Below are positions 15,349 through 38,240 of a DNA stretch of 64,000 nt, one piece after another (within the stretch, counting starts at the first letter, position 1; each line of letters starts with the position of its first letter). The notes under the pieces are model-generated. The model did no database searches. It was not told where the DNA came from and saw nothing but the letters and a program-made list of their open reading frames with translations. The translations under genes were made by a program, and so were the position numbers. The stretch comes from Betaproteobacteria bacterium (GTDB lineage Bacteria > Pseudomonadota > Gammaproteobacteria > Burkholderiales > CAIKXV01), in NCBI GenBank assembly GCA_947458265.1, contig CANGYF010000009.1, positions 66,544 to 130,543 of the forward strand, in the 5' to 3' direction.

Positions 15349-15357
15349 GCCCTGCGC

Positions 15358-19250: not shown

Positions 19251-19366
19251 CGACGGGGCGCCGCGGCGGCAGGCTGGACGGGAACGGTCACTGGGGACTT
19301 GTGGACAGGTGTCTCGGTTATAGTAACAGGTTGCCTTTTTTACACGGCGTGGCTGGCAGGGCGGGC

Positions 19367-22273
<2,907 letters not shown>

Positions 22274-22317: not shown

Positions 22318-24723
22318 TCAGCGTCGCGCGTAGTCGAGGAACTTCTCCGGCGTCACCCGGATCGCCGCGCCGGTGGGGCAGGCGCGCACGCAGGCCGGCC
22401 CGCCGCGCAGGTCGGTGCACATGTCGCACTTCACCGCATGCTTGGCCCCATCCTTCGCCGCAGCCAGCGTCTCGCACCCTGGCTCGTCGGTCAGGCCGGT
22501 GAGCAGCCAGGAAAGCAGGCTCGGCCGGCGCCGCTTCTCCACCACCGGCACCAGCTGGATCACGCCGTACGGGCAGTTCTTCTCGCAGTTGCCGCAACCG
22601 ATGCAGGTGTCGAGGATCGTTACCTCGCCTTCGGGGCTGCGCTGGATCGCGTCCGGCGGGCAGTCCTTCATGCAGTGCGGGTTCTCGCAATGGCGGCAGG
22701 ACGTGGGCACGTGAATGCTGGCGAAGGTGGGCCCGGCCTCGCGGTCGAGCCGCGAATTGCCGTCGTGGGTATCCGCGCAGGCCTTCTCGCAGTTGTCGCA
22801 GCGGATGCACAGGCTCTCGTCGATCAGCAGCACGTCGGTGGCCTCGCCGACCCCCTGCTTCATCAGGAAGCTGATCAGGTTGCCCGGGTCCGGCTCGCTC
22901 TCGCGCGCTGCATTGGCGGCGATGCGCTCGAGCACGCGCGCCTCGACGCTCCCACGCAGCGTGTTGTTGCGCATCAGCACTTCGTTGAACGTGCGCGCAT
23001 CCAAGACGATGCTCTCGGTGGACACCGCCGCGCGCACGGTCGCCGATCGCGGCGCGTCGGACAGCAGCGCCATCTCGCCCACGTAGTTCCCGGCAGCGAC
23101 ATACGACAGCACCACCTCGCGCCCGCCCAGGGTGCGCGACACCGTCACCGAGCCGCGGCGGATCAGGTGCAGCCCATCGGCCTTGTCGCCTTCGTGGAAC
23201 AGCACCTCGCCGGCATTGAACACGCTGATGCGCGCATTGGCCACCATCTCGTCGAGGTCGGCCGCGCTGATCCACGGGGCGATATTCGCGCGCACCGCGC
23301 GCTTGAGGAACACCTCGTCGACGCGCCGGCGCACCGACTCCACGCTGCCGATCAGCTTGAGCATCGTGCGCCGCGGCGTCTCGAGCAGCACGCAACCCGG
23401 GCCCGCACGCACCGTGCTCGCGCGCCGGCGGCCCGACACCAGCCCCATCTCGCCGAAGAACTCGCCGGTACGCAGGCGCACGTCGCTGCGCTTGCCTTCC
23501 TTGTCCAGCACCTCGATCAGCACCTCGCCTGCGACGATGACGAAGAACGAATTGGAGTAGTCGCCCTTGGCGAACACCACCGCGCCGGCGGCAGGCTGCT
23601 GCATCTCGCTCTCCAGCAGCACCTCGCGCAGTTGCAGCGTGGACAGCCCGGAGAACACCGGCACGGTGCGCTGGATGCGCGCGAGCGCTCCGGCAACATC
23701 CGTCGCCGCGTGCCAGCCCGCCAGGCGTCGCTTGAGCAGCGGCTCGTCGGCGGGTTCCACCGGAAAGCCCAGGATCGACTCGACCACCTCGTAGCCCTGG
23801 TTCATCGCCTGCTTGATCAGCGGGTAGCCCCCCAGGGCACCGACGATATACAGGCCGGGCACGTTGGACTCGTAGGTCGGAGACAGTTCGGGCACCGCGT
23901 TCGGGTCGTCGTTCGGAAAGGTGACGCCGAAGCTTTCGACGAGGCGGCGCGGAGGCGTTGCGCCCAGCCGGGCGATCACCCGGTCGCAATCGATGCTGTC
24001 CGAGCCGTCGCGCGTCTGCACCCGTACGCGCAGCGCACCGGCATCCACCGCCTCGACCGCCTCGGGCCGGGTGCTGAAGCGACACTCGATCACGCCGTCG
24101 CGGATCGCGCTGGTGACCAGGTCTAGGTTGCCCTGCTTGCAACGCGTGAACTCCTCGTTGCGGTTTAGCAGTACCACCCGGTTGCCATTGGCCAGTGCCA
24201 GCGCGTTCTCGATCGCCGCATCACCGGCGCCGACCACCACGATGGTCTCGCCGACATGGGCGCCGGGATCGTCGAGCTGGTACTGCACGCGCTCGAGGTC
24301 CTCGCCTGGCACGCCCAGCCGCCGCAGGTTGCCCTGCAGGCCGATTGCCAGCACCACATGCTCGGCGTGCACCGGCTCCTGGCCCTCGATGCCGAGCACG
24401 AACGCGCCGCGGCTGCCGGTGATCGAGACCACGGTGGCGCGATGGCGCACCACGACCCCAAGCGTCGCCACCTGCTCATCCCAGGTCTGCAGGATGCGCT
24501 CGCGCTTCCCGGCAGCGAACGACAGGTCGCTGCGCAACGGCAGGATGGCCGGCTCGGCCATCACGTGCTTGCCTTTCTGGTAGCGGAAGATGGTGTGCGA
24601 GAGATGCGACTCGGATTCGAGCAGCACGTGCGACACCCCGCGGTGCGCGGCGCGCGCAGCGCACGACAGGCCGCCCGGGCCAGAGCCGACGACGGCGATC
24701 TTCACCGACACGGGGGGGCTCAC
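22318..24723 (-). CDS. Cytoplasmic fusion protein: FAD/NAD(P)H pyridine-nucleotide-disulfide-type oxidoreductase, two cyclic-nucleotide-binding domains and an NrfC/DmsB-like four-cluster [4Fe-4S] ferredoxin
   Basis: KIAVVGSGPGG and TIVVVGAGDAA are dinucleotide folds. FGEMGLVSGRRRASTVRA and VGEMALLSDAPRSATVRA are cNMP motifs. There are four Cys groups: CIRCDNCEKAC, CRHCENPHCMKDCP, CIGCGNCEKNCP and CDMCTDLRGGPACVRACP. GTG start at 24723 in a GTGA overlap with the upstream stop (alternative GTG at 24711). No signal peptide. Confidence 0.8.
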   Translation of the reverse strand: MSPPVSVKIAVVGSGPGGLSCAARAAHRGVSHVLLESESHLSHTIFRYQKGKHVMAEPAILPLRSDLSFAAGKRERILQTWDEQVATLGVVVRHRATVVSITGSRGAFVLGIEGQEPVHAEHVVLAIGLQGNLRRLGVPGEDLERVQYQLDDPGAHVGETIVVVGAGDAAIENALALANGNRVVLLNRNEEFTRCKQGNLDLVTSAIRDGVIECRFSTRPEAVEAVDAGALRVRVQTRDGSDSIDCDRVIARLGATPPRRLVESFGVTFPNDDPNAVPELSPTYESNVPGLYIVGALGGYPLIKQAMNQGYEVVESILGFPVEPADEPLLKRRLAGWHAATDVAGALARIQRTVPVFSGLSTLQLREVLLESEMQQPAAGAVVFAKGDYSNSFFVIVAGEVLIEVLDKEGKRSDVRLRTGEFFGEMGLVSGRRRASTVRAGPGCVLLETPRRTMLKLIGSVESVRRRVDEVFLKRAVRANIAPWISAADLDEMVANARISVFNAGEVLFHEGDKADGLHLIRRGSVTVSRTLGGREVVLSYVAAGNYVGEMALLSDAPRSATVRAAVSTESIVLDARTFNEVLMRNNTLRGSVEARVLERIAANAARESEPDPGNLISFLMKQGVGEATDVLLIDESLCIRCDNCEKACADTHDGNSRLDREAGPTFASIHVPTSCRHCENPHCMKDCPPDAIQRSPEGEVTILDTCIGCGNCEKNCPYGVIQLVPVVEKRRRPSLLSWLLTGLTDEPGCETLAAAKDGAKHAVKCDMCTDLRGGPACVRACPTGAAIRVTPEKFLDYARR

Positions 24724-26210
24724 TTCGCGCCCCCACGGCGCGCCGCCTGCAGCGTCGCCGCGAACTCGCGCAGCCCGGCCTGGAACGCGACAGGCTGGTA
24801 CTTCTCGTCGTCGGCCACCAGCGCGAGCAGCCGCCTGAGCCCGGGCCCGAGCTGGTCCGGCGCCACCGCCTTCTGCCGCGCAAGGAAGTCGCCAAGACTC
24901 TGCAGCGCGAACACCGCCTGTTCGGCACCGGCGTAGTCGGTGTACTGGCTGGCCAGCCCGTCGGCCACCAGGGCCTCCATCATCGCCTGCAGATCGGCGG
25001 CCGCGAAACGGTGGGCAGCGATGCGCGGCAACAGGCCGTCGATCGCCTCGTACACGGCACGCGCCTGCGCGATCGGGTCGCCGGCGCCGGCGATCGCCTG
25101 GTGCAGGCGGTCGATCTGCTTCGCCAGCGCGGCCCCGGCGTCGGCATCGACGCGACGCGCCACCAGCCGCAGCATCAGCAGGTTCGAGTCGTTCAGTCGC
25201 ACGATCCCGGGGCCGGCCTTGAGCCGGGCCGCGAGGTAGCGGTTGCCGCGCATCGACTGGTGGCACGCATGGCAGTCGAACAGCACCAGTTCCGGGAACA
25301 ACCCGTCGCGACCGCGCTGCGGGTGCAGGAAGATCGCCAGCTGCTCCTGCGAGGCCACCGCCTGGCCGATCGCCCAGGCACGCACGCCGTCCCACGTACC
25401 CTTGCGCTCGCGCCAGTCGGCGTCGATGCGGAAATGCGCCGGTCCGAGCAGGGTGAACGTGTCGAGCTCGAAGCTCATCCTCGGATGCCCGGCCGCCATG
25501 ATCCTGTGGGTGACCAGCTTCTGCGCGTTGCCGAAGTGACAGGACACGCACAGGCGTGCGCGGTCGATGTCGTTGCTGGTCGGGTACAGCCCGTGGGCGA
25601 TGTTGTCGCGGTGGCTCGCGCCGCTCTCGACGTGGCGCCGCAGCCAGCGCTCGGCCGGCCCGTGGCAGGACTCGCAGGTCACGCCCTCGGTGATCGAGAA
25701 CTCCGGTGCGCGGCGCGCCGCCGGCGCGTTGTGCGCGTGGCAGTCCAGGCATACCGCAGCGCGGTGCGCAGGTTCAGTCAGACCCATCCGCTTGACGATC
25801 GCCTGCGACTTGTCGCTGAGCAGCGTGCGATAGGCGCGCGCGTGGCGGTCGCTGCGCTGCCAGACATGGAACTCGGTCTGCAGCACGTTCGAGCCGGGCC
25901 ACGCCTCCGCCGAGCCGTGACACAGGCTGTTCGCGCAACTGGCCACGCCGAGCGTGCGCTCGGCCGCGTACTGGGGGAGCCCGCGGGCCGGGGCGGCGAC
26001 GCCCGGGACGGCTGCCACTGCACGGCCTGGCCCTGGCAGGCCACCCCACAGCGCACCCGCCACGATGCAGCCAACGATAGCCGCGGCGAACGCCAGGGCG
26101 AGCGCTCGGCTGCGGCGCGCGCCGGCAGGCAGCGCCTGTGCGCCGGGCTGTGCCGTGGTAGACGATGGTACGGGGACGGATCGACGCAATATGCGCACGG
26201 GGAACCTCAT
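24720..26210 (-). CDS. Multihaem c-type cytochrome (4 CxxCH plus 1 Cx4CH) with an N-terminal anchor/signal and a helical C-terminal domain
   Basis: Start at 26210 in an ATGA overlap with the upstream stop. Haem motifs: CANSLCH (Cx4CH), CLDCH, CESCH, CVSCH, CHACH. The N-terminal part looks cytochrome c554-like. Confidence 0.8.
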   Translation of the reverse strand: MRFPVRILRRSVPVPSSTTAQPGAQALPAGARRSRALALAFAAAIVGCIVAGALWGGLPGPGRAVAAVPGVAAPARGLPQYAAERTLGVASCANSLCHGSAEAWPGSNVLQTEFHVWQRSDRHARAYRTLLSDKSQAIVKRMGLTEPAHRAAVCLDCHAHNAPAARRAPEFSITEGVTCESCHGPAERWLRRHVESGASHRDNIAHGLYPTSNDIDRARLCVSCHFGNAQKLVTHRIMAAGHPRMSFELDTFTLLGPAHFRIDADWRERKGTWDGVRAWAIGQAVASQEQLAIFLHPQRGRDGLFPELVLFDCHACHQSMRGNRYLAARLKAGPGIVRLNDSNLLMLRLVARRVDADAGAALAKQIDRLHQAIAGAGDPIAQARAVYEAIDGLLPRIAAHRFAAADLQAMMEALVADGLASQYTDYAGAEQAVFALQSLGDFLARQKAVAPDQLGPGLRRLLALVADDEKYQPVAFQAGLREFAATLQAARRGGAK

Positions 26211-29200
26211 CGCCGGAACAGCGTGCGATCGACCTGGTCGCGCACGCGCCACGGATCGCCTTCAGGGCGCAGGTAGAGCCGTCGCTGCTCGGCCAGGTCG
26301 AGCGGGCGCGAGCCGATTCGGCCGAACACCGCCACCTGCCCGCCAGTCTCGTCGACCGCGCGGTCGCGCTCCAGCCCGCGCGACAGGGCAAGCGCAGGAC
26401 TGCGCGTGGGCCGCCAGGCAATCAGCTGCGGCCTGGGCTCCGGGCTGAAGCCGTAGAACTTCGGCTGCGTGTCCGGTGCAGTGAGCTGCACCACCTTCAG
26501 CCCGTTACGCCCGTCCGCGACGTATGCGAACAGCGACGCGTTGGTCGAGCCGACCACCACGTCGCGGGCGTCGTTCAACACACCGCCGGCAGTGAAGCGC
26601 TGGACCACCCGCGGCTGCTCCGGATTCTCGACGTCTACGATCACCAGCCCCTCGCGCCCGGCCGCGACATAGGCGTAGGTGCGCGCGACATACACGCGGT
26701 TGGCCTCTGCCATCGGCACGGTGGCGCCCTCGACGCGCCGCGGGCGCTTCACATCGGTGACATCGAGCACAACCAGCCCATCGCGCGCGGCGACGAACAG
26801 GTAGCGAAACTGCAGCGTCGCCGCGCGTGCGCCTTCGACCGGCACCACGGTGACCAGTTGCGGCTTGAGCGGGTCGTCGAGGTCGACCACCGCGATGCCG
26901 CGCTCGACGGCGACGTAGGCGTAGTGGCCGCCCATCGTGATATGCCGCGCGCCGCGCAGCGCACCGCCCGCGTCCCAGGTAAGTGCCCGGCGCAGGAAGT
27001 TGTTGCGCGGCTCGCCGTCCTGCAGCGTGTCCACGTTGACCACGATCAGGCCCTCGCGCGCATCGGAGATGAACGCGTAGTGGTAGATCGGGTGGAACGG
27101 CTGTTCCTGGTTGACCCGGCGCATCAGGTCGCCCTGGTTCTTGAACGGGGCCACCGGCTGGTTGGTGGGCAGCGCGACGCAGGTCGCCTCCGCCGAGCGC
27201 ACCCGCGTGTCCTGCCCGAGCGGCGAGAACGGCGCGCTGACGATGCGCTGCGAGAAGCCCTTGTTCGCGATCGAGGCGACGTCGTACACCACCATGCCGC
27301 CCGGGCCCTCGGCCGCGTAGAGGTATTCGCCACGCATTTGCAGGCACTCCACCCGGCCGCGGGTGCGCTGGTCGTGCGCCTCGCGCAGGCGCCTGCCTCG
27401 ATTGTCGTGCGCGGCGAACCAGTCCGGGTACGCGTAGCGGTGCAGGTAGCTGCCGATCACCGCCTGCGGCTCCTCCCACTCGGTGACCTGCACCGCCTCG
27501 ACATGGCGCTCGCTGCCGACCCACGCGTTGAAGCCGACGAAGTTCACGAAGCCAGTGCCGTGCAGCAGCAGCTGCGCCATGATGGCGTTGTTGTCGTTGG
27601 CGGCCGACAGGTGGCAATCGGTGCAGGTCTTGGTCTCGGTCTTGCGCTCGGTGTGCGCATAGTGCGGCGCGAACGCCTGGCTGGAGAAGCCGGCGGAGGA
27701 AACGGGCGGCTGCTGGATGTAGATGCGCTCGCGGTTGCTGTTGGTCGAGGACAGCAGCAGCGCCGAGCTGGAGCGGATCGGCACGATCTTGCCCTGCTTG
27801 ACCGGGCCGTGGCGGCCGAGCTGGAACACGTCGTCGCGCACCACCTGCGGGTTATAGGTGGCGTAGTTGCGCGTCGCACCACCCTCGTAGTGGAGGCGAT
27901 CGGTCTTCCAGTTCGCCTCGATCGGCAGGTGGCAGCCCGAGCAACTCGTCGTCCACGAGGTGTGGCAGGTCTGGCAGGCCATCTTGTCGTCGCCGTGCGC
28001 ACGCTCCTGCGCGGGCACGCCCGGCCCCCAGGACTGGCGATAGCTGTCGAAAGCGCCGCGCGCGGTGAGCTTGGACCGCGCCGCCTTCTCGTTGTAATTC
28101 CGGTGCCCGGGGGTGACGGTATCGCGCACCAGCGACATCTCCCACTCCAGCCCGGGGGTGAGGGTGGAGCGCTGGTAGAGCCGGCCGCCACGCCACTCGA
28201 AGCGCGCCCGCCCGTCGGGCACGCGCATCAGCGAGAGGTTGTTGCCGCCCGGGCGCGCCGCCGGGCCCGAGGTGAACAGCGTCGGGTAGCGGTCTGCGGT
28301 GCCGTGGCAGTCGGCGCACTCGATCTCGATCGCCGCCGCGACCTCGCCATAAATGTGGCCGTTGCCGTGGGCGTCCTGGGAGAAGTGGCAGTCCACGCAG
28401 TGCATGCCCACGTCGAGATGGATCGAGGACATGTGTACCGACTTGCTGAACTTCTTGGGGTCGTCGTCGGCGACGATGCGCCCGTCCTTGTCGAGCAGGT
28501 TGCCCCTGCGGTCGCGCTTGAAGACCGCGCGGAAGTTCCAGCCGTGGCCGTGGTAGTCGGCGAACTGGGTGTCCTTCAGCTTCGGGTTGAGGTCCCACAC
28601 CCGCTTCAGGAACTCGAGCGAGCCCCAGTTGCCGAGTACCGCCGCGCCCTCCGGGTTGCGGTCAAGGATGCGGCGGCGTTCGGTGTGCGACGGGTGGCGC
28701 TGCTTCTCGGGCCACATGAACGGCGCATCGGCCTCGTAGTCCCACATCGTGTAGCCGAAGAAACTGTTCACGAACACGTTCGGCTGGTGCATGTGGCACA
28801 CCATGCACTGCGAGGACGGAATCGCGCGGGTGAACTCATGCCGCAGCGGGTGGCCGCTGCGGTCGCGCGGGATCGTCGGATCGGCGCTTACGCTGGTGCC
28901 CGAGTGGCCGTGCTGTGCGTAGGGCCCGGAATGGCGCGGCTCGCGGTCGTTCGCGTAAACGACGTGGCAGCTCGCGCAGCCGGAGGAGCGGTAATCGCCC
29001 GGCTGGTCGTTGCTGCCGAGGAACCAGGTGAACGGGTCGTTCAACCGCGTCTTGGTGATGTTGATCAACGGCACCGCGATGCGCTGGCCGGTACCCGGGC
29101 CGCGCACCGACTGGCGGATATCCGGCCGCCCCGGCTCGTCCAATGTCTGCAGCCGGCCGAGCACGTTGGGCAGTCCGATCTCCGGGAACAGGCTCTGGAT

Positions 29201-29998: not shown

Positions 29999-30077
29999 AC
30001 GCGATGCAAGCCCGGCAGGCCGGGCACCTGGCCTCTGGTTCACCGCTGCAGGGACGTGATTGGGCACCGTGGCGGCC

Positions 30078-32819
30078 TCAATAGGTGAGGATAAGGTTGG
30101 CGATGGCCGAGTACTGCCGGCTGTCGAGCGCATTGCCGTAGAGCTCGCGCAGGCCAGCCCCAGGGAACAGAACCGCGAGCGAGACGTTGATCACCACGTT
30201 CTGGATGAACAGCGGCCGGTACTGCACCGCCACCGATGCATCGTGGCCGATCATATTCGAATGCAGGCGCTGGTTACGCAGCGTCGCCAGCGACGACAGG
30301 TTGTCGAAAGCGAGCCGGTTGAGGTTGCCGATCAGCCGCACCTGCGGCGTGAGGTCCACGTCGGCACCGATGCCGATCAGGCGCAGCCCGGGGTTGGTGA
30401 AGTTCGCCTGGCCGTGCTCGCGCGAGGTGCGCAACGAAGCAAGCAGGCCGTTGCGCATCGACAGCGTGGTACCGCCCCCGCCCACCAGCGGCACCGCCTG
30501 GCGGATCCAGTAGCTGGTATCGGCGCCGGCGAACAGCGGGTTCTCCAGCACCGCGTCGAAGCCCTGCGCCTTCGCATCGAAAGGGTTGCGGTCGCCGGAG
30601 GCGTAGAGCGCGCTGGTGCGCAGCCGGATCCAGGAGAAGTCGCGCGAGACTTCGGCCGCGCCGAACCGTGCTTCGACCCGCTCGGGCTGGCCTGAGAGCT
30701 GGCCGCGGCTCACGTTACCGCTCGCCAGGTAGCCCGACAGGGACAGGTTCCAGCGGTTGTAGTGGCCGTCAGCGTTGAGGCCCAGCCAGGTAACGTCGTA
30801 GTCGTAGGGCCGACCCGAGCCGAACACCGCCGGCCGCTCGAGGAAGCCGTTGCCGTTGAAGAAGCGCGGGTTCGATCCCTCGCGGTTGCTGTTGCGCAGG
30901 ATGGTCCCCTGGGTGGTCACCCCAAGCACCGGGAAGTCCTGCCGGTAAAGATTGAACACGAACACGTCATCGTCGCGGGGGCGCTGCAGGATGTCGTTCA
31001 ACCCGCTGTTGGTGTCTTTCTCGAAGCGGCGGAACCACGCGAGGTTGTACTGGTACTGGTTATTGTCGCGGGTGCCGAACAGGCGAACCCCGAACGGCTG
31101 GTCGACGAACAGGAAACCGCGGAAATCGGAGGTGAACGGCTGCACGCCGACGCGCAGGCTGTCGAAGTCGTAGCGCTCGGACACGTCGCGCAGGTGCTTG
31201 TCGAAGAACAACTCCTGGAAGCCGACAAAGCCGTCGTTGCGGTTCGGACCGCTCACCGGGTCGATGTTGGTCAGCCGCACCTCTTCGGTCATCGTGCGGT
31301 TGAAGTTGACCACCGGCACGATCCGGTACTCGTAGTCGGGCGGCCGGAACACGGTGTTGCCCTTGATCAGGCCAAAGTTGAGGATGAGGGTCTGCGCGAA
31401 GGTCGCCTGGCGGCCGTTGCCAAACGAGCCCAGCGCACCGGGGCGCAGGGCGGACTGCGACCCGACCGGCACAGGCAGGCTGCGCGACTCGTAGAGCGAG
31501 TCCGAGATCGCGCTCACGTTGACGAACCACTCTGGCCCGAGCAGGTCCTCGAACACCGGCAGGTCGCCGCGCAGAGGGTTCGGGTTGTACGGATCCCATC
31601 GGTTGTACGGCAGCACGCCCAGTGCCTGCACGATGCGCCAGCGATCACGCACCGGGATCGAATCGCGCGGCGCCGACGGCGCGGGGCGGGCAGCCTGCGT
31701 CGGGTCGATCAGTGCGCGCCGCGGTTCGAGCGCACCGGCACCACCAGTCGGGCGACGCCGCTCGAGCGCGAGCGCCACTGGCGGGAGGTCTGGGCCACCC
31801 TGCGCCGGCGCGACACCGGGGCGCAGTGCCTCAGCCAGCCCGGCGGCGGACGCCGCGTCCGGGGCGGCTGGCTCGAGCGGCCCTCCGAGGTCGACCGGCT
31901 CCAGCGCCTGCCCGCTGCGCCGGCGGTCCACCGCCAGAACGTCCGCAGCGCCCTCGCGCCGCTGCCGTACCCAGGCCTGGTCGCCGTTGGCCCGCTGCAC
32001 GCGATACCAGTCGCCGAGGCGGCGGTCAGCCACCAGCAGCACGCCGATCTCCACCTGCGCCACGACCTCGGCGTCATCGGCCGCACGCGCCTGAAGTGCG
32101 AGCAGCGGCACCATCACCTGCAGCAGGAACGGCGCATCCTCGGGCGCTGGCAACGGTGCCGCCGGCACCGGGGCCGCTGCCGCGGCCACCGCCGAGGTCA
32201 CCCCCAGCGCGCGCGCATCCACCCAGCCGCGGCTGCGCGTCGCCGCCTTGCCTTGGCGCTCGACCTGCACCCAACTGCCTTCGCGCTGCGACGCCTGCAG
32301 CGGCTCGCCCACGACCAACCGGTCCAGTACACGGAAGCGCTCGCCGGCACCGGCGCGCAGGAGCGCCGGCTGCATCGCCTGCACCTCGACAGCCACCGCG
32401 CCAGGCAGCTCCGGGGGCAGCGCGACCAGCGCCGCCTCGCCGGTAGCGGGCGGGCCCGCCGCCGGAGCCTTTGCCCGGAGGCTACCGGGCGCAGGCCCTG
32501 AAGGCGTGGCTGCCACCCGCAAGCCGTCGGCAAACACCCAGCCCTGGGTGGCGCGACCGTCCTGCAGCCGTACCTGTGCCCAGCGGCCCTGCCGCTGCAT
32601 CACCACCGCCGGCACACCAGGCGCCCAGCCCGCGGTCTCGGGAGCGTCCTCCGAAGGTCGCTCGCGCAGCGGGGTCGGGCGCTCCACCCGCACCCGCTCG
32701 CTGGTGCCAGCCGGCGGCTGCGGCTGCGGCTGCGTCCAGGCTGGCGGCGCAACGAGCACCGCCCCGGCCAACGCAGCCGCAGCGGCAAGGCGCACGTGCT
32801 CAGAGGCCGTCGCAGACAT
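30078..32819 (-). CDS. Outer-membrane protein: signal peptide, three SH3b-like repeats and a ~560-aa predicted beta-barrel
   Basis: Start MSATASEHVRLAAAAALAGAVLV at 32819 (alternative GTG at 32795). The SH3b-like segments end in GWVFADGLRV, GWVDARALGV and AWVRQRREG. The C-terminal half has alternating amphipathic segments and ends ...AIANLILTY (terminal aromatic residue). Confidence 0.6.
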   Translation of the reverse strand: MSATASEHVRLAAAAALAGAVLVAPPAWTQPQPQPPAGTSERVRVERPTPLRERPSEDAPETAGWAPGVPAVVMQRQGRWAQVRLQDGRATQGWVFADGLRVAATPSGPAPGSLRAKAPAAGPPATGEAALVALPPELPGAVAVEVQAMQPALLRAGAGERFRVLDRLVVGEPLQASQREGSWVQVERQGKAATRSRGWVDARALGVTSAVAAAAAPVPAAPLPAPEDAPFLLQVMVPLLALQARAADDAEVVAQVEIGVLLVADRRLGDWYRVQRANGDQAWVRQRREGAADVLAVDRRRSGQALEPVDLGGPLEPAAPDAASAAGLAEALRPGVAPAQGGPDLPPVALALERRRPTGGAGALEPRRALIDPTQAARPAPSAPRDSIPVRDRWRIVQALGVLPYNRWDPYNPNPLRGDLPVFEDLLGPEWFVNVSAISDSLYESRSLPVPVGSQSALRPGALGSFGNGRQATFAQTLILNFGLIKGNTVFRPPDYEYRIVPVVNFNRTMTEEVRLTNIDPVSGPNRNDGFVGFQELFFDKHLRDVSERYDFDSLRVGVQPFTSDFRGFLFVDQPFGVRLFGTRDNNQYQYNLAWFRRFEKDTNSGLNDILQRPRDDDVFVFNLYRQDFPVLGVTTQGTILRNSNREGSNPRFFNGNGFLERPAVFGSGRPYDYDVTWLGLNADGHYNRWNLSLSGYLASGNVSRGQLSGQPERVEARFGAAEVSRDFSWIRLRTSALYASGDRNPFDAKAQGFDAVLENPLFAGADTSYWIRQAVPLVGGGGTTLSMRNGLLASLRTSREHGQANFTNPGLRLIGIGADVDLTPQVRLIGNLNRLAFDNLSSLATLRNQRLHSNMIGHDASVAVQYRPLFIQNVVINVSLAVLFPGAGLRELYGNALDSRQYSAIANLILTY

Positions 32820-34695
32820 TGGTGGCACTGGTGTCGAGGAACGGGGCGACCGGACACTGCACGTAGCGCAGGCGGGTGCCGGCGGCGCCGGGGACGATGG
32901 TGTCGGCGCGGATGCCCGCTGGCGCATTACCGATGCCGGTGGCGAGCCGAGTGCCGGCATTGGCCACGCCGAGGAAGGCGATCATGTCGTCCTGGTCCAC
33001 GCCGTCGCCGGAAATGCCGATCGCGCCTACCAGCGCCGCGCCACGGTAGATGGGCACGCTGCCGGGGAAGATCTGGATGCCGTTCTGCGCGCGCGGCAGG
33101 CCGGTACAACCGACCACGGCCGAGCCAGTCGCCGCGGCGACGATGTTGTTGAAAGACAGGTCGAGCTGCAGGCCGACGGTGAACGGACTCCACTGCGCGA
33201 ACGGCTTCGACAGCGGGCCGCTGGCCGAGCCGTTGATCCCATCGGGGAAGAACGGGCGAGCCAGGTTGCCGACCGCGCGGTTGCTGTAGGCGACGCCGTC
33301 GGACAGCGCCGCCGGATTGGCAACGAAGGCTCGCAACTGCGTGACATACGCCCCGATCGGCGAGGCCGGGTTGGGCGCGAGATAGGCGGCATCGGGCAGC
33401 GCCGCAAGGTCGGTCGCGGTGTTCGGATGCGAGAACAGCAGCGCGGTGCGCGCCTTCTGCAGCGACACATCGGTGCCGAATACCGGTGCATCGGCGGTGC
33501 GTACCAGCCCGAGCACCTCGCCGGCGGTGTCCACGATCGAGATCGTCACCTGCGCCGGCGAGCCGAGCGGGCGGCGGATCTGTGCGCGGGTGCGGTTGGC
33601 CACCCTTAGCGCCTCGGCAAGCAGCGCGACCACCTCCGCCTGGGCGAGCAGCCCGTCGGTGCCGGCACGCGGCGCGAAGCGATTGGCGTTGGCGCCGTCG
33701 ACCAGCACATAGGCACCCAGCGCCGCCAGCTCGGGCTGCGTGTCGGGCCGGTAGCCAGAGGCCGGCGTGCCGTAGGCCTCGCCGGCCACGAGCGCGGCGG
33801 CGGCGTAGCCGGCCACCGCCACCAGCGTGCCGGCGGTGCCGTTGATGCTGGCGAAGGCAGGCGCGGCGGCGGGGTTGGACAACAGCGCCTCGGAGTCGAC
33901 GAAGCGCAGGGTGCGCCCGTCAGCGGTGATCCGGTCGGCGCGCCGGTCAGCCGGCGCGGCGAAGCCGCTCGACCCAGCCACCGCGATCAGCTCGTCCAGG
34001 GCGGCGTCGACGTCATTGATGTCGAGGTCGATGCCGTAGGTGCCATCGGCGATCACGCCGATGCCACCGACCACCGTACCGTTCTTGTACAGCGGCAGGC
34101 CGCCGGGATCGGCGGCAAGCCCGAGCGGCGAGCGCTTGGGGCCGATGCTGCCGTCGGCCTGCCGGCGCATCAGGTCGGAGCAGGACAGCTGCGAGAACTG
34201 CACGCCGAACAGCGGGCCGCCCGGCTGGCCGGTCTCGCCCGGGTTGAAGTTCTGCTGCACGATCTGGCCGGCGGTGCGGGTGGTGAACGCATTGCCCTCG
34301 GATGACAGGTAGGCGCCGGTGAGTGCCTTGCTGATCGCAGCGAAGGTCGCCGGCAGCACGTTCACGCCTTCCAGCCCGCCGGAGACGCCACGCCCGCCGG
34401 AGATGTTGAACGTGGCGGCCGCGCCGCCCATGCTGAACACTGCCAGCACGTTGCCCACGCGGTCGACCACGGCGATGGTGGCGCTGGCGCCGCGCGCCTG
34501 CGCCTCGGCCACCGCCTGGCTCAGGATGCGCCCGACCTCGGCAGTGCTCAATGCGGTGGGCGTGGCGAAGCAGCCGCCCGTGCAGCCGCCGGAGGCACCC
34601 GGCGTGCCGCCGTCACCACCGCCACCGCCGCCACAGCCGGCGAGCAGGACAAACAGCAGCACAGACAGCATCCGACGTAGACCGGTCGCACTCAT
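32800..34695 (-). CDS. Lipoprotein with two tandem GlcG/HbpS-like (DUF336, haem-binding/'haem-degrading') domains
   Basis: Start MSATGLRRMLSVLLFVLLAGCGGGGGG (lipobox LAGC) at 34695 in an ATGA overlap with the upstream stop. Domain 1: ATIAVVDRVGNVLAVFSM...GGLPLYKNGTVVGGIGV. Domain 2: ISIVDTAGEVLGLVRT...SLQKARTALLFS...VPIYRGAALVGAIGISGDGVDQDD. Confidence 0.7.
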   Translation of the reverse strand: MSATGLRRMLSVLLFVLLAGCGGGGGGDGGTPGASGGCTGGCFATPTALSTAEVGRILSQAVAEAQARGASATIAVVDRVGNVLAVFSMGGAAATFNISGGRGVSGGLEGVNVLPATFAAISKALTGAYLSSEGNAFTTRTAGQIVQQNFNPGETGQPGGPLFGVQFSQLSCSDLMRRQADGSIGPKRSPLGLAADPGGLPLYKNGTVVGGIGVIADGTYGIDLDINDVDAALDELIAVAGSSGFAAPADRRADRITADGRTLRFVDSEALLSNPAAAPAFASINGTAGTLVAVAGYAAAALVAGEAYGTPASGYRPDTQPELAALGAYVLVDGANANRFAPRAGTDGLLAQAEVVALLAEALRVANRTRAQIRRPLGSPAQVTISIVDTAGEVLGLVRTADAPVFGTDVSLQKARTALLFSHPNTATDLAALPDAAYLAPNPASPIGAYVTQLRAFVANPAALSDGVAYSNRAVGNLARPFFPDGINGSASGPLSKPFAQWSPFTVGLQLDLSFNNIVAAATGSAVVGCTGLPRAQNGIQIFPGSVPIYRGAALVGAIGISGDGVDQDDMIAFLGVANAGTRLATGIGNAPAGIRADTIVPGAAGTRLRYVQCPVAPFLDTSATNVCDGL

Positions 34696-36428
34696 CGGTG
34701 AACTCCCTTCGCGCGCAGCGCCGCCAGCACCTCTGCCGCCGCGCTCTCGCGGGTGCCGTGGAAACCGTGGCACAGCGCGCACTCGGACCGTACCTTGCCC
34801 TTCTCCGCACGCGCGCCCACATGGCACTCGCGGCATTCGCGCACGCCAGGCATCGCCACATCGGCGGCACTGCGCGAGCGCTCGACCTGGTGGCAGTCCC
34901 CGCACTTGGCCGTCGCATGGCTCGCATGCGTGAAGCTTGAGTACGGCATCCACGCCTGCGTGACCCGCACAGGCGCGACGTCCCAGCGCGTGGGCCCGCC
35001 AGCCGGATCGCGCGCGCGCAGCACCTCGTGGCATGTGGAACACACCGCGCGCGTCTCGAACAGCTCGCGCAGCGCCAGCTCGGCGCGGCGGTCGGCCGAG
35101 CCAAGCGACGCAGAACGCTCCAGCGGCGTGGAGTCGGCGCCCGGCCGGGCGCGCGCCGTCGCACGTTCCTCGGTCAGCGTGCCGGCGTAGAGGTGGCGCG
35201 CGTAGTAGTCGCGCAGCATCGGCAGCATCGCCTCGACCCTGCCGTGCGGCACCTGCCGCGTCGCCCCCGGCTCGAAGGTGAGGGCGTGGCAGGACTGGCA
35301 GTGTCGCTCCATGGTGACCGGCGCGAAGCGCCGCCCGTCGCGTTCCGGTTCGTGACAGCTCGCGCACTCGAGGACCTCGCGCCGCTGCGGCCCGCGGATG
35401 CCTTTCGCATCAAGGTGGATCTCGTGGTTGAACTTCAGGTTGGAGCGCTCGCGCGGCGGCGGGACGTCATTCAGGCGCACGCGGCGCACCTGCGGCGGCT
35501 CGCCCGGGTCGAGCAGCGACAGCCGGAACTCCGGATGGTCGCGCGCGAAGTCGACCACCTTGCCCGACTGTGCCTGCCCGGCCGTGCGGCGGATATCGCG
35601 ATGGCAGTCGGCACAGAACGCCTGCGAGAACGGCTGCGCCTGCGGGCCCTTGTGGTCGCGATGGCACTCGGCGCAGCGGGTCGCAGCGAAGCGCTCTCCA
35701 TCCGGGCCGGTGAGTTCAGGGTGCGGCACGTGGTCGCGGATGCCCTTGTGGCACTCGAGGCAGGCGCGGTCACGCACCTGTACGAACGGCAACTCGTGGC
35801 AGGCGCGGCACTCGAAGGCCGCGGCCTGGTGCGCGTTCATGAGCGGGCCCGGGTCCCATGACTGCTGCATGCGATCCGCCCCCTCCCGCAAGCGCTGCGC
35901 GTCGGCGGCCGAGGGCGTACCGACCCAGGCCGCCGCGATCCCGCCGGGGCCGAACAGGTCGGGCGCGGCAGGCAGCAGCAGGAACGGCACCAGGATGCCG
36001 AAGAACATCAGGTAGGACAGCGTCCGGCGCCACGATCTCGCCGGCGGCAGCAGCACCTGCTGCGCCTCGCGGCCAGCGTCGGCGGCCAGCCGCGACGAGG
36101 GCTCGATACGCAGCGCGAGCGCGGCGGCGTCGGGCGGCGGATCGACGGTGATGCGAAACGGCCCGATGTCGATACGGTCGCCGGGCACGATACGCTGCGC
36201 ATTGACCACCCGGCCGTTGACCTCGAGCTCGCCGGAGAGGCTGGCGATCGTCGCCTCGTCCCCCGATACCGTGATGCGCGCATGCTCGAGCAGCACGCGC
36301 GGATCGGGCAGGTGCACCTGGCAGCCGGTACCGCGCCCCACCAACAGCACCGCCCCGGCGACACGGCGCGCGACACGCACCGGCTGGCCGTGTCGTCCGG
36401 GGGTGACGTAGGTGAGCTGGGTCTCCAT
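34692..36428 (-). CDS. FHA-like domain, single TM helix and periplasmic decahaem cytochrome c
   Basis: The N-terminus LLVGRGTGCQVHLPDPRVLLEHARITV...LEVNGRVV...GDRIDIGPFRITV is FHA-like. TM helix: LSYLMFFGILVPFLLLPAAP. Ten CxxCH motifs: CRACH, CLECH, CAECH, CADCH, CASCH, CQSCH, CSTCH, CGDCH, CRECH, CALCH. Confidence 0.8.
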   Translation of the reverse strand: METQLTYVTPGRHGQPVRVARRVAGAVLLVGRGTGCQVHLPDPRVLLEHARITVSGDEATIASLSGELEVNGRVVNAQRIVPGDRIDIGPFRITVDPPPDAAALALRIEPSSRLAADAGREAQQVLLPPARSWRRTLSYLMFFGILVPFLLLPAAPDLFGPGGIAAAWVGTPSAADAQRLREGADRMQQSWDPGPLMNAHQAAAFECRACHELPFVQVRDRACLECHKGIRDHVPHPELTGPDGERFAATRCAECHRDHKGPQAQPFSQAFCADCHRDIRRTAGQAQSGKVVDFARDHPEFRLSLLDPGEPPQVRRVRLNDVPPPRERSNLKFNHEIHLDAKGIRGPQRREVLECASCHEPERDGRRFAPVTMERHCQSCHALTFEPGATRQVPHGRVEAMLPMLRDYYARHLYAGTLTEERATARARPGADSTPLERSASLGSADRRAELALRELFETRAVCSTCHEVLRARDPAGGPTRWDVAPVRVTQAWMPYSSFTHASHATAKCGDCHQVERSRSAADVAMPGVRECRECHVGARAEKGKVRSECALCHGFHGTRESAAAEVLAALRAKGVHR

Positions 36429-36434
36429 CGCCGG

Positions 36435-37289
36435 CTACCAGAAGTAGAACACCGACACCACGTGCGCAATCAGCGCAGCGATGGCACCGAAGGACAGCGG
36501 CACGTGCAACAACAGCCATACCCGCATCGCCGCGCGCAGCTGCAGGTCGCGGCGCGCGCGCGCCAGCAGTTCGCGCTTGCGCACCATCGCCGCGAGCAGC
36601 CGCTCGCCCAGTCGTACCTGCTCTGTCGAGAGCTTCGGCGCGAGTGCGGCGGGCAACCGGGTACAGGCCTCGCGCGTGGGGCAGCGCACGCGCTCGCCGC
36701 GCAGCTCGCGCAGCAGCCCGCCGCCCACGCGCGACTGGCGCGCCCGCATCACCAGCGCGTTGACCTCATCGGGCAGGTTCATCGCCAGCGCCTCGCACTC
36801 GCGGTCGATCTCGCCGACCTTCAGGACGAGCGTGTCGATGGTGTCGTCGCCGAGGTTGGCGGTCACCAGCGCCGGGTAACGCAGGTAGACGAGCACCCCG
36901 TACACGCCGCTCGCCGATACCGCCAGAACCAGTACCCAGGCGAGCGTATGTACGTTCCAGCCCAGTTCGAAGCCGGCGTGCAGGGTGGCAACCACCAGGA
37001 CGGCACCGCCGAGGTACACGTGAGCGGAGGTCCAGCCCTGCACGGTGCCGAGTCTGGAGCCGTAGCGACGCTTGCGGATGCCCAGCAGCATCAGCCACAG
37101 CATCAGCAGCGCGGCGATAGTGCCCAGCGTGTAGCCAAGCCAGGTGCCGCCGTAGTGCTTGGGGTAGCGCGGCGTCGGGTCGATCCAGAGATACGCGACC
37201 GTGGCAACCACGACCAGACACAGCGCCAGCTTCAGATAGCGGGCGCGCCGGTACTCGAGCAGCGACTGGTGGTGGCGCGAGGCGAGCAT
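36435..37289 (-). CDS. Integral membrane protein (5 predicted TM helices) with two H-x13-H helices; putative di-haem b-type transmembrane electron carrier
   Basis: TM3 is SAHVYLGGAVLVVATLHAGF and TM5 is LLLHVPLSFGAIAALIAHVV. Each has two His exactly 13 residues apart. ATG at 37289 is preferred; the longest ORF starts at 37361. The stop lies 6 nt before the FHA-cytochrome start. Confidence 0.6.
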   Translation of the reverse strand: MLASRHHQSLLEYRRARYLKLALCLVVVATVAYLWIDPTPRYPKHYGGTWLGYTLGTIAALLMLWLMLLGIRKRRYGSRLGTVQGWTSAHVYLGGAVLVVATLHAGFELGWNVHTLAWVLVLAVSASGVYGVLVYLRYPALVTANLGDDTIDTLVLKVGEIDRECEALAMNLPDEVNALVMRARQSRVGGGLLRELRGERVRCPTREACTRLPAALAPKLSTEQVRLGERLLAAMVRKRELLARARRDLQLRAAMRVWLLLHVPLSFGAIAALIAHVVSVFYFW

Positions 37290-37412
37290 TTTTCGCACGG
37301 GTGACCGCTTCGACGGCGACGCGGCTGCAACCCAGCATGACGACATCAAGCGGACGATCATACTCGATCAATATGACAGGCCAGAAGGCCGCGCGAAGGC
37401 CCCCGAGGGCGC

Positions 37413-38225: not shown

Positions 38226-38240
38226 CCCTCGCCCGGCGCT

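Follow-up and report, generated by a model that had tools for sequence, protein, structure and literature searches.

Seven co-directional, overlapping ORFs, numbered here G1 to G7 in the direction of transcription, were found on the minus strand between positions 22318 and 37361 of the window, by which we mean the entire 64,000-nucleotide stretch of betaproteobacterial DNA that was analyzed. The coordinates and tight coupling described in an earlier note on this DNA were read back from the sequence. A 6-nt gap (TAGCCGGCGATG) separates G1 from G2, ATGA overlaps join G2 to G3 and G5 to G6, and a GTGA overlap joins G6 to G7. The junction of G3 and G4 at 32800/32819, previously described as either an overlap or a 4-nt gap, proved to be an overlap of 20 nt. 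The gap between G4 and G5 is 79 nt, given a G5 start at 29998, which is the one chosen by gene callers in other assemblies; the gene calls of those assemblies include products of 578, 631, 913, and 1263 aa. The ORF of G1 opens at 37361, but the true start is more likely to be M25 (37289), since the 308-aa form is missing from the protein collection and homologues start at M25. The Pfam assignments given below for G3 to G7 and for the FHA domain of G2 exceed the curated thresholds, and Pfam and NCBIfam searches bore out the domains named earlier. The predicted locations of the products, spread over the cytoplasm, inner membrane, periplasm, and outer membrane, also held. In place of the 24 to 25 c-heme motifs first counted, 25 were found (10 CxxCH in G2, 10 CxxCH in G5, and 4 CxxCH plus 1 CxxxxCH in G6), each at least 90% conserved across 52 to 79 homologues.

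G7 (22318..24723, minus strand) is a cytoplasmic flavo-iron-sulfur protein by its Pfam and NCBIfam matches and conserved cysteines, and sequence analysis revealed no signal peptide or transmembrane segment. It begins with a TrxR/YpdA-like FAD/NAD(P)H domain (Pyr_redox_2; residues 8-310, window positions 23794-24702), in which the homologue alignment showed no redox CxxC and whose PDB relatives are YpdA/Bdr. Two cNMP-binding domains follow (Pfam cNMP_binding, twice; about residues 357-586, 22966-23655), with the tandem cNMP domains of PKA-R/PKG as PDB relatives, and then a four-cluster ferredoxin domain (Pfam Fer4 families; residues 632-796, 22336-22830) related to the HycB3/HycB4 and HycB polyferredoxins. 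Sixteen cysteines are conserved in G7 homologues, consistent with four [4Fe-4S] clusters.

G1 (36435..37361, minus strand) is a five-helix inner-membrane protein and a putative diheme b-type cytochrome. The transmembrane segments were shown by hydropathy, and a cytoplasmic insert of about 110 aa lies between TM4 and TM5. Two H-x13-H pairs, H114/H128 and H286/H300, sit on the parallel helices TM3 and TM5 with the spacing found in cytochrome b. Both pairs and H138 were invariant in 50 homologues and were 93-100% conserved in 128 distant representatives at the 50% identity level. No known cytochrome b showed significant similarity to G1: sequence and profile searches of the PDB returned zero matches, and an hhalign comparison with E. 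coli CybB was null. In both gene orders, G7 was kept with G1 in every context sampled, and in Magnetococcus sp. YQC-9 the two form one in-frame ORF of 1127 aa, a single instance that comes from a metagenome-assembled genome. We consider it quite probable that G1 binds heme b and docks G7.

The only family signal for G1 was a weak, repeated match to PF01292 (cyt b561), sub-threshold in five of the six homologues searched. Members of this family exchange electrons with quinones, and G1 could on that basis act like HyaC, FdnI, or cyt b561 as a quinol dehydrogenase that feeds G2 from the quinone pool, with G7 as a redox/cNMP-sensing regulator or secondary input rather than the main electron source. 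The two regulatory cNMP domains on G7 would suit such a role. We nonetheless regard this as very unlikely, as G7 accompanies G1 in every context sampled and is once fused to it, four conserved [4Fe-4S] clusters are the mark of a wire and not of a sensor, and the conserved cytoplasmic insert of G1 suits protein docking.

G2 (34692..36428, minus strand) is a bitopic inner-membrane decaheme cytochrome c with 10 CxxCH motifs. A cytoplasmic FHA-fold domain (residues 29-89, window positions 36162-36344; Pfam FHA, 29 bits against a cut-off of 20.7) is followed by a single transmembrane helix (residues 135-160, 35949-36026) and by a periplasmic part made of a chain of c3/c7-like modules that matched Cytochrom_c3_2 and Cytochrome_C7. 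Besides its ten CxxCH motifs, G2 has exactly ten conserved histidines, a count consistent with bis-His ligation of all hemes. The FHA residues G31, R32, and H49 are conserved, and the canonical phosphothreonine-binding serine is replaced by alanine in most homologues.

G6 (24720..26210, minus strand) is a periplasmic pentaheme cytochrome with four CxxCH motifs and a conserved CxxxxCH. Its N-terminal half is c554-like (Pfam Cytochrome_C554), its C-terminal half carries no heme motif, and its homologues have Sec-type signal peptides. It is probably a relay from G2 to the outer-membrane module.

G5 (26207..29998, minus strand) encodes a secreted decaheme cytochrome of 1263 aa, whose ten CxxCH motifs are spread at low density through a domain of about 800 aa. 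All ten are conserved, and so are 17 further histidines of the protein. The C-terminus is an LVIVD beta-propeller (about residues 824-1209, window positions 26372-27529; Pfam LVIVD, 72 bits). A model of the propeller alone, which leaves the heme domain outside, had pLDDT of 85-95 and returned only generic propeller matches in Foldseek; no PDB relatives of G5 were found by sequence or profile. A partial match was obtained to NCBIfam ExtM (72 bits, cut-off 800), which is encoded in the Geobacter operon for selenite/tellurite reduction. The signal peptide of G5 is of the ordinary Sec type and lacks a lipobox. Of the seven proteins G5 shows the highest conservation, with 63-73% identity between classes, a level not usual for an exposed cytochrome. 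Together with the missing lipobox, this conservation points to an enzyme or buried subunit more than to an exposed contact cytochrome. The cell-surface location considered probable in the earlier note is unsupported.

G4 (30078..32819, minus strand) is an outer-membrane protein with a signal peptide, SH3b repeats (Pfam SH3_3 and SH3_4), and a C-terminal beta-barrel. The barrel predicted in the earlier note was recovered by AlphaFold2 (pTM 0.72) as 18 strands occupying the C-terminal 533 aa (residues 381-913, 30081-31679), and the chain ends in ...LILTY. The SH3b region precedes the barrel and would therefore be periplasmic; among homologues it is variable or absent, whereas the barrel is conserved. 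The best Foldseek match in the PDB was AlgE (3rbh, E 3e-16), followed by OprD/Occ porins, and MtrB was absent from the top 50 matches. MtrB, which sheaths MtrA, is much wider with 26 strands, while the G4 barrel is of AlgE/OprD size, and threading of a decaheme through it is doubtful on this model. No component of the locus belonged to the Mtr, Geobacter Pcc/Ext, or Tmc/Hmc systems when tested for membership, in agreement with the earlier statement that no architecture here matches those of Mtr/Pio/Mto or Geobacter.

G3 (32800..34695, minus strand) is an outer-membrane-type lipoprotein built from two expanded GlcG/HbpS-like (DUF336) domains that are homologous to each other. The Pfam HbpS-like match scored 81.8 bits, the N- and C-terminal halves share 31% identity (E 2e-8), and a lipobox was present in 47 of 60 homologues. 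Four cysteines are conserved in the homologue alignment, and no histidine is. The nearest solved relatives are EfgA/GlcG, of which EfgA is a formaldehyde sensor, and the C-terminal domain of PduO. The former description of G3 as a heme-binding lipoprotein is not borne out by these results.

Mapping of gene co-occurrence across genomes, as proposed earlier, found the seven genes together in nearly every one of 80 related loci of sufficient length, in beta-, gamma-, and alphaproteobacteria and in two gene orders, a linkage beyond chance. Relatives of G5 occur in at least 571 species genomes, and the LVIVD decaheme family has more than 7,700 clusters at 90% identity. Carriers are mostly aerobic heterotrophs such as Limnobacter, Halieaceae, Steroidobacter, Usitatibacteraceae, and Nevskiaceae. 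The system is accordingly not novel in the sense of rare, and a Ferrigenium preprint of May 2026 had already noted the three-gene core as "function unknown". The type II secretion system adjoining the cluster here is a neighborhood not kept elsewhere.

The seven genes do not form a single indivisible machine. The G7-G1-G2 core stands alone in Magnetococcus and in three other loci (L090, L091, and L092). At locus L088 the core is accompanied by two copies of G6, and G3-G5 are replaced by another multiheme cytochrome and a putative barrel, a protein of 522 aa that has a signal peptide and ends in ...RRKF, such that the pairing of cytochrome and barrel would recur. Two loci, L053 and L061, hold G3-G6 with the core absent within 10 kb. 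G7-G1-G2 is a self-standing core, and G3-G4-G5 is one exchangeable output set.

We tentatively propose, with a probability of roughly 0.45, that the locus encodes a modular system for electron export, driven by NAD(P)H and regulated post-translationally by cNMP and phosphorylation. NAD(P)H would be oxidized in the cytoplasm at the TrxR-like flavin domain of G7, and electrons would pass along the four [4Fe-4S] clusters of this protein to the heme of G1 on the cytoplasmic side. The two b-type hemes of G1, both bis-His, would take them through the inner membrane, and in the periplasm they would be accepted by the ten bis-His c-hemes of G2, which would be anchored beside G1. From there pentaheme G6 would pass them to G5. 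Acting at the outer membrane with the barrel G4 and the lipoprotein G3, G5 would then reduce an acceptor at or beyond that membrane. Observations that run against the export reading are the lack of a known cytochrome b match for G1, the narrow barrel, the missing lipobox and high conservation of G5, the FHA serine lost from most homologues, the type II secretion system that adjoins the cluster only here, the two loci without a core, and the origin of the fusion in a single MAG.

Electron flow is probably outward on thermodynamic grounds, given the potential of NAD(P)H (about -320 mV) and an inside-negative membrane potential that favors movement of electrons to the outside. Multiheme chains are in principle reversible, and electron uptake would have G5, G4, and G3 oxidize an outside or periplasmic donor (Fe(II), Mn(II), or reduced humics), with G6 and G2 as carriers to the inner membrane and with reduction there of quinone by G1 or of NAD(P)+ by G7. 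Such a role was put forward in the 2026 preprint for Ferrigenium straubiae, in which the same three-gene architecture was expressed in all conditions tested and the FHA-nonaheme cytochrome was proposed to feed the quinone pool from Fe(II) oxidases. A 2023 Gallionellaceae pangenome lists, without further discussion, a cluster of 10-heme "Forkhead-associated protein" in 27 of 87 iron-oxidizer genomes. Most carriers are, however, heterotrophs and not lithotrophs, and inward passage through a two-heme membrane protein opposes the membrane potential. Donors at the level of Fe(II) would have to reduce NAD(P)+ strongly uphill, with no coupling device visible, and G1 had no quinone-site family match in Pfam, in PDB profile searches, or in the CybB comparison. 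We therefore hold uptake to be unlikely.

Whether electrons reach the outer membrane, to act there or to cross it, or end on a periplasmic substrate is evenly balanced. The core might export NAD(P)H electrons to a reductase in the periplasm that has a substrate channel of its own, with no electron crossing the outer membrane. G4 would then be a solute-specific AlgE/OprD-like channel for a soluble, probably anionic substrate, G5 a multiheme enzyme reducing it for detoxification or redox balancing, and G3 an accessory or substrate-binding lipoprotein. The fold of G4 is that of 18-strand solute/polymer channels, and Arg, Asp, and Asn are invariant at many positions of its barrel, in which an internal loop rich in Gly is also highly conserved. 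The enzyme-like conservation, low heme density, and Sec signal without lipobox of G5 also fit, as does its partial ExtM match. Stand-alone cores adjoin genes for periplasmic enzymes, e.g. CCP_MauG and cupredoxin, and the core in the Ferrigenium preprint adjoins nirK. Against this, LVIVD and choice-of-anchor-B type propellers typify surface proteins, and in the L088 output set, too, a cytochrome comes together with a putative barrel. No catalytic heme, as marked by CxxCK, by a Lys/Tyr ligand, or by the lack of a distal ligand, was recognizable in the sequence of G5, and 17 spare conserved histidines are available for its ten hemes. To our knowledge, periplasmic reductases with their own outer-membrane channel are rare, which also counts against this alternative, and we judge it rather unlikely.

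Under the export reading, binding of cyclic nucleotides to G7 would gate electron flow. The earlier note had described an NAD(P)H/cNMP module built into the system, and this module is indeed linked in function to the cytochromes: it travels with them in both gene orders, and G7 is fused to G1 in Magnetococcus. Adenylate/guanylate cyclase genes adjoin G7 in Limnobacter and in a Comamonadaceae isolate. At four loci the cyclase gene next to G7 is of the CHASE2-cyclase or cyclase-TPR type. Genes for PP2C, a double-FHA protein, and a Hanks kinase adjoin the cluster in 12-14 gammaproteobacterial loci; in some lineages a Ser/Thr kinase/PP2C/FHA circuit, possibly with the FHA-fold domain of G2 as its target, could provide a further gate. 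In betaproteobacterial loci, ccm genes adjoin the cluster.

The seven genes lie on the minus strand and are numbered in the order of transcription: G1 (36435-37361), a five-helix membrane protein; G2 (34692-36428), an FHA domain with a decahaem cytochrome c; G3 (32800-34695), a GlcG-like lipoprotein; G4 (30078-32819), SH3b domains with an outer-membrane barrel; G5 (26207-29998), an LVIVD-propeller decahaem protein; G6 (24720-26210), a pentahaem cytochrome; and G7 (22318-24723), a flavo-FeS protein with cNMP domains. The tight junctions described in the earlier note were exact in the sequence, with a 6-nt gap between G1 and G2, ATGA overlaps at G2/G3 and G5/G6, and a GTGA overlap at G6/G7; G3 and G4 overlap by 20 nt, and a gap of 79 nt separates G4 from G5, as read from the sequence. 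Independent gene calls in other assemblies of the same organism gave identical products of 578, 631, 913, and 1263 aa. No protein record was found for the 308-aa form of G1 and G1 homologues begin near M25, so the G1 start is probably at 37289. The GC content of the window is 62-76%, and promoter and terminator scans gave counts no different from those of shuffled sequence.

Pfam and NCBIfam searches at curated thresholds upheld the domain list of the earlier note. G7 matched Pyr_redox_2, two cNMP_binding, and 4Fe-4S dicluster families; G2 matched FHA and c3/c7 modules; G3 the HbpS-like/GlcG family; G4 the SH3_3 and SH3_4 families; G5 LVIVD; and G6 Cytochrome_C554. G1 matched no Pfam or NCBIfam family at threshold. 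The c-haem motifs, previously put at 24-25, total 25 (10 in G2, 10 in G5, and 5 in G6, the last being 4 plus one CxxxxCH), and all are conserved in 52-79 homologues from related loci. The initial observation as a whole was confirmed, with genes, junctions, domains, and haem motifs as they had been given.

In G7, 16 conserved Cys are enough for four clusters, the flavin domain is without a redox CxxC, and neither a signal peptide nor a TM segment was found. Among solved structures, the flavin domain is related to YpdA/Bdr, the tandem cNMP domains to PKA-R/PKG, and the FeS part to HycB-type polyferredoxins.

G1 has two H-x13-H pairs, H114/H128 and H286/H300, on helices that are parallel by hydropathy and the positive-inside pattern. 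Both pairs and H138 are invariant across 50 homologues, and the conserved His are kept at 93-100% across 128 representatives drawn from the family, which at 50% identity comprises 1706 clusters. Five of six G1 homologues gave weak matches to PF01292 (cytochrome b561/Ni_hydr_CYTB; E 1e-3 to 3e-2, 15-19 bits against a cut-off of 30.1). The G1 family profile found no match in the PDB, and its hhalign comparison with E. coli CybB was null, for which reason an assignment of G1 as a cytochrome b561 homologue was not adopted. Because the His pairs are conserved, the PF01292 matches only weak, and the PDB and CybB searches empty, G1 is a candidate for a new family of dihaem transmembrane cytochrome b, probably outside known families. 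No other part of the cluster is so poorly annotated, and G1 may be the most informative of all.

In G2, one TM helix follows the FHA fold, and apart from the His of the haem motifs exactly ten others are conserved, the number that ten bis-His haems would require. The FHA match (PF00498) covers residues 29-89 at 29.0 bits against a cut-off of 20.7; G31 is conserved in 45 of 45 sequences, R32 in 36 of 42, and H49 in 34 of 40, and N71 is Asn or Asp. The canonical FHA Ser position is Ala in 23 homologues and Ser in only 4. Since this phosphate-binding Ser is mostly replaced by Ala, though the Gly-Arg and His are kept, phosphothreonine binding by the fold is uncertain. G2 also matches the non-phospho YscD-like model PF16697.

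A cytochrome with cytosolic FHA, one TM helix, and a periplasmic multihaem domain was reported from Ferrigenium straubiae as a "Novel membrane-associated nonahaem cytochrome c", its gene adjoining those of a five-TM protein without InterPro match and of a cytosolic [4Fe-4S] protein (bioRxiv 10.64898/2026.01.22.701106). This module sits between nirK and an SHP-like gene, without G3-G6, and the cytochrome, expressed in all conditions tested, was assigned a function of "unknown" (bioRxiv 10.64898/2026.01.22.701106). The architecture of G2, G1, and G7 fits that description point by point, and as judged from the architecture described the Ferrigenium module is almost certainly of the same family, with nine haems against the ten of G2. 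The paper did not identify the five-TM protein as a possible b-type cytochrome and made no mention of NAD(P)H or cNMP domains. In a 2023 Gallionellaceae pangenome, 27 of 87 iron oxidisers have a 10-haem "Forkhead-associated protein", which is listed there without discussion; evidently both this protein and the Ferrigenium module are the core module, by which we mean G7-G1-G2. We know of no earlier account of the link to an NAD(P)H/cNMP flavoprotein, of the putative b-haems, or of the outer-membrane set. The seven-gene cluster was not found described in literature on LVIVD with cytochrome, GlcG/DUF336 with multihaem, cNMP with multihaem, or propeller with Burkholderiales; on checking, neither the Tenderiales Uet cluster nor an Idiomarina paper had any relation to it.

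Novelty in the sense of rarity did not hold, since relatives of G5 are encoded in at least 571 species genomes and the G5 family, "hypothetical" throughout, comprises more than 7,700 clusters at 90% identity; the G4 family has more than 7,000 clusters. Isolates with a G5 relative include Limnobacter alexandrii, Fontimonas, Parahaliea maris, P. mediterranea, Steroidobacter agaridevorans, and a Comamonadaceae strain. Examination of the best 80 loci bore out the co-occurrence of the seven genes, the set being complete in nearly every case where the contig was of sufficient length. Betaproteobacteria carry the genes as G1-G2-G3-G4-G5-G6-G7, Gamma- and Alphaproteobacteria as G7-G1-G2-G3-G4-G5-G6, and the retention of all seven genes in a rearranged order is strong evidence for their functional linkage. 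Conservation ranks as G5 > G7 ≈ G3 > G4 barrel > G6 > G1 > G2, to our knowledge the reverse of Mtr systems, in which the surface cytochrome is the most variable component.

The genomic contexts of distant G1 relatives revealed a modular organization. G7-G1-G2 stand alone in three such loci (L090, L091, and L092). A stand-alone core is also found in Magnetococcus sp. YQC-9, where in one case, from a metagenome-assembled genome, G7 and G1 form a single in-frame ORF of 1127 aa (L086 9953-13333, JAMOBI010000025.1, protein MEO5345780.1), preceded by a DUF1924 monohaem protein and followed by an FHA-like octahaem. The database entry of the fusion begins 17 residues late, so that the GxGxxG motif is missed. 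Two loci, L087 and L089, carry the canonical gene set. The variant locus L088 (8454-20840 of JGI 3300045634 Ga0486081_00109) retains G1, an FHA-less G2, G7, and two G6 copies, and in place of G3-G5 has an unrelated pentahaem cytochrome and a 522-aa protein with a signal peptide and a C-terminal ...RRKF, a putative barrel without Pfam match. In L053 and L061, G3-G6 are present and the core is absent within 10 kb. Given the stand-alone cores, the replacement in L088, and the core-less loci, the system is a core (G7, G1, and G2, often with G6) with exchangeable output sets. The L088 cluster adjoins a phage-type integrase and a Y1 transposase, which suggests horizontal mobility of the system.

Among the output proteins, G3 contains an internally duplicated, expanded GlcG-like domain, with a PF03928 (DUF336) match of 81.8 bits against a cut-off of 25 in three stretches, and 47 of 60 homologues have a lipobox. 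Haem binding, which the earlier note had ascribed to G3, was unsupported: no His is conserved across the 60 homologues, in which only four Cys are, and the PDB relatives are EfgA, PduO-C, and 2a2l, from a GlcG/HbpS-like family that includes non-haem roles such as that of the formaldehyde sensor EfgA.

The barrel prediction for G4 held. The conserved C-terminal 533 residues were modeled by AlphaFold2 from a 49-sequence alignment as 18 antiparallel strands (pTM 0.72), and Foldseek found the AlgE alginate exporter (E 3e-16) and OprD/Occ porins as the closest solved folds, with MtrB absent from the top 50 PDB folds. The predicted barrel is thus AlgE/OprD-like and no Mtr-type sheath. The 18-strand monomeric fold is the same as in AlgE/OprD/Occ (Foldseek E 3e-16 to 1e-8, TM-score on target 0.55-0.66), but identity is 8-13% with no Pfam alginate_exp or OprD match, and unlike those proteins G4 has N-terminal SH3b repeats and is always found among cytochrome genes. 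The SH3b region is variable among homologues and absent from some. The most conserved stretch of G4, at residues about 756-810 (within 30081-31679), reads ENP.FAGADTSYWIRQ..PL.GGGG..LS.RNG. The conserved Gly-rich segment, between strands 13 and 14, has the lowest placement confidence in the model (pLDDT 31-48) and may act as a plug within the barrel or as a loop that binds a partner.

The LVIVD (PF08309) match of G5 reached 72.1 bits against a cut-off of 20.2, and the C-terminal roughly 390 aa were modeled as a propeller (pLDDT 85-95) that resembles generic 7-8-blade propellers. Assignment of a fold to the haem domain was abandoned with an AlphaFold2 pLDDT of only 25-50 there (50-sequence alignment), and for this reason the Foldseek matches, all propellers, cover the propeller only. 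Against PDB sequences, G5, G4, and G1 gave either nothing or meaningless matches in sequence and profile searches. By neither method does the G5 haem domain have a PDB relative, and it shows only a partial match to ExtM. Outside the haem motifs, C885, C940, M959, H969, and H1019 of the propeller are conserved, and this Cys/Met/His set could be a disulfide or metal site. For G6, an IVGC motif in the window sequence raised a lipoprotein assignment, which was rejected as homologues mostly have ordinary Sec signals.

Surface exposure of G5, thought probable at first, is not supported, but electrons may still cross the outer membrane. The main rival to a conduit keeps the core but takes G5 as a periplasmic enzyme and G4 as a substrate channel for it. 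A crossing is favored by the dedicated, conserved barrel, by a propeller of the kind typical for surface proteins, and by the pairing of cytochrome and putative barrel seen again in L088, whereas the barrel has only 18 strands, G5 is extremely conserved with a plain Sec signal, and no secretion system is conserved.

The cluster resembles the MtrCAB/PioAB/MtoAB systems of Shewanella, Rhodopseudomonas, and Sideroxydans in grouping multihaem c-cytochromes, an outer-membrane beta-barrel, and an outer-membrane lipoprotein, and in the overall logic of a haem chain from inner to outer membrane, but none of their components is homologous to G1-G7. The DmsE/MtrA model TIGR03508 (decahem_SO) gave 24.9 bits with G2 and 21.7 bits with G6 against a cut-off of 192.2. 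The MtrB_PioB Pfam model did not match G4, whose 18 AlgE-like strands compare with about 26 in MtrB/PioB. No OmcA/MtrC model matched G5, and PF22113 was found for G2 only, at 23.5 bits against 30. Unlike the Mtr-type lipoprotein, G3 is without a haem motif, and the large decahaem G5 is without a lipobox. Electron input here would be by a cytoplasmic NAD(P)H flavo-FeS protein via a putative b-type membrane protein rather than by a CymA-type quinol dehydrogenase; a quinol-fed chain is a lesser rival.

The Geobacter clusters OmaB-OmbB-OmcB, ExtABCD, ExtEFG, and ExtHIJKL with ExtM likewise pair smaller-than-MtrB barrels with multihaem cytochromes, and G5 shares local haem-module similarity with ExtM (E 2.9e-20, two stretches). 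G5 is not an ExtM, since it scored 72.1 bits with the ExtM equivalog NF040943 against a cut-off of 800. Other Ext/Pcc family models were unmatched (GSU2203 decahaem, 17.8 bits against 325), and the Geobacter systems lack a cytoplasmic or b-type input module, a GlcG lipoprotein, and an LVIVD propeller.

Periplasmic multihaem c, membrane cytochrome b, and a cytoplasmic iron-sulfur protein also combine in the Tmc/Hmc/Dsr-type complexes of sulfate reducers, which have in common with this cluster a design linking periplasmic and cytoplasmic redox pools without obligate quinones. Their presumed direction is inward, and their hosts are sulfate reducers as opposed to the mostly aerobic hosts here. Scores with their models were 32 bits against 114 (TmcA), 26.6 against 400 (HmcA), and 32.7 against 420 (HmcB); no CCG domain and no NarI-type match of G1 were detected, and G7 combines flavin and polyferredoxin with cNMP domains where Tmc/Hmc have an HdrD-like CCG protein. 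With NOX and Fre-MsrQ the cluster would share the export of electrons across the membrane from cytoplasmic NAD(P)H via flavin and two stacked bis-His b-haems, the H-x13-H spacing being found in G1 as well, and, as in eukaryotic NOX, a tight post-translational control. However, six G1 homologues gave no match to PF01794 (Ferric_reduct) even at E<=10, G1 has five helices rather than six, G7 is TrxR/YpdA-like with four FeS clusters rather than FNR-like, and the recipients would be 25 c-haems rather than O2 or MsrP. The cluster failed every test for membership in Mtr, Geobacter Ext/Pcc, Tmc/Hmc, and NOX/MsrQ systems; the earlier note had likewise matched its architectures to neither the Mtr-type nor the Geobacter systems. 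It may combine the working of a porin-cytochrome conduit with that of a transmembrane module in the style of Tmc/Hmc or NOX/MsrQ.

What the data show are the components with their ligands and topology signals, the fold of the barrel, the linkage and modularity of the genes, and a single fusion. We infer a chain from NAD(P)H through G7, G1, G2, and G6 to G5. The FAD of G7 would be reduced by NAD(P)H and pass electrons to the four [4Fe-4S] clusters, the two b-haems of G1 would carry them across the inner membrane, and the c-haems would follow, ten in G2, five in G6, and ten in G5, with the chain ending at the G4/G3 outer-membrane assembly. Of the complete, novel conduit that the earlier note envisaged, the domains, barrel, linkage, and lack of a known-system match stood, while rarity, G3 haem binding, and surface exposure of G5 were not supported. 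The cluster is widespread and uncharacterized, and we know of no precedent for its cytoplasmic NAD(P)H/cNMP input and FHA-tagged multihaem. Inward electron uptake is another lesser rival, and the Ferrigenium authors speculate in this direction that the nonahaem cytochrome couples Fe(II) oxidation to quinone reduction (bioRxiv 10.64898/2026.01.22.701106). We favor outward flow, from the low NAD(P)H potential and the membrane potential, and the hosts, mostly aerobic heterotrophs, fit this direction.

Neighboring genes were surveyed in a census of 125 immediately flanking ORFs and by clustering of flank ORFs. A PP2C phosphatase, a double-FHA protein, and a Hanks kinase adjoin the cluster in 12-14 gammaproteobacterial loci, and CcmI/CycH and other ccm genes flank it in 13 betaproteobacterial loci. 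A CHASE2-sensor adenylate/guanylate cyclase of 754 aa directly adjoins G7 in Limnobacter (L031, L033, and L035, about 17.6-19.9 kb), and a TPR-linked cyclase directly follows G7 in the Comamonadaceae isolate (L034 17796-19607); where those loci carry the cyclase, the window has uvrA (19226-22273), convergent with G7. The core-less G3-G6 of L053 are flanked (254-5935, 14934-16676) by a caspase-domain (Peptidase_C14) and Sel1 protein, a Ser/Thr kinase, an autotransporter, PP2C, and a double-FHA protein. At 9024-12124 of L090, near the stand-alone core, a CHASE2 protein and another caspase-domain protein are encoded.

In its widest form, the proposal would make the core a NOX-like, cNMP- and phosphorylation-gated NAD(P)H "electron export valve" that bypasses quinones and, joined to G3-G6, gives ordinary aerobic Proteobacteria of soil, fresh water, and sea a way to deliver reducing power from the cytoplasm to the cell surface, with extracellular metals, humics, or O2 as possible targets. 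We consider this unlikely, at roughly one chance in five. Were it true with O2 as the target, it would provide an enzymatic source of the widespread NAD(P)H-stimulated extracellular superoxide from heterotrophic bacteria, for which we know of no machinery.

Trans-envelope and extracellular electron transfer is known almost wholly from a few anaerobic metal reducers and iron oxidisers. Metagenomes contain thousands of variants of the cluster, its carriers are mostly from oxic soils, fresh water, activated sludge, and sea water, and every component is annotated as "hypothetical" or by generic domain names. In cultured Limnobacter, Steroidobacter, Parahaliea, and Fontimonas it provides a definite candidate, accessible to genetics, for extracellular redox activities of aerobes that so far lack an explanation. 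If the model is right, it would add a new quinone-free input route, from NAD(P)H through flavin and FeS clusters to b-haems, and a new regulatory layer for envelope electron transfer (cNMP, FHA/kinase/phosphatase); G1 would be a new family of transmembrane dihaem cytochrome b, and the LVIVD decahaem G5 a new multihaem fold with no solved relative.

Directly upstream of G1 is a complete type II secretion system (37413-48517), with gspN (37413-38225), gspM (about 38241-38750), gspL (38744-40033), and gspJ (40860-41501) on the minus strand, as is G1, and gspD (42867-45812), gspE (45775-47319), and gspF (47240-48517) divergent on the plus strand. The distance between the gspN stop and the G1 start is just 51-123 nt. 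A link to type II secretion, suggested by the example of MtrC export, was rejected, as the adjacency is not kept in 80 related loci: tblastn found no counterparts of GspL, GspM, GspN, or GspJ there, and T2SS families are absent from the recurrent neighbors, which is why the adjacency is treated as coincidental. GspL occurs in L053 only, about 8 kb off. Elsewhere in the window are a xanthine-dehydrogenase-type molybdoenzyme (3444-5924), an SLT_2 lytic transglycosylase (13405-14856), and an MFS transporter (17997-19250). GC is sharply lower at 48000-64000 (about 63%) than at 38000-48000 (72-76%, the gsp genes), the lower value being that over the rpoA/rpsD/secY ribosomal-protein operon, at 49122-53621 and beyond.
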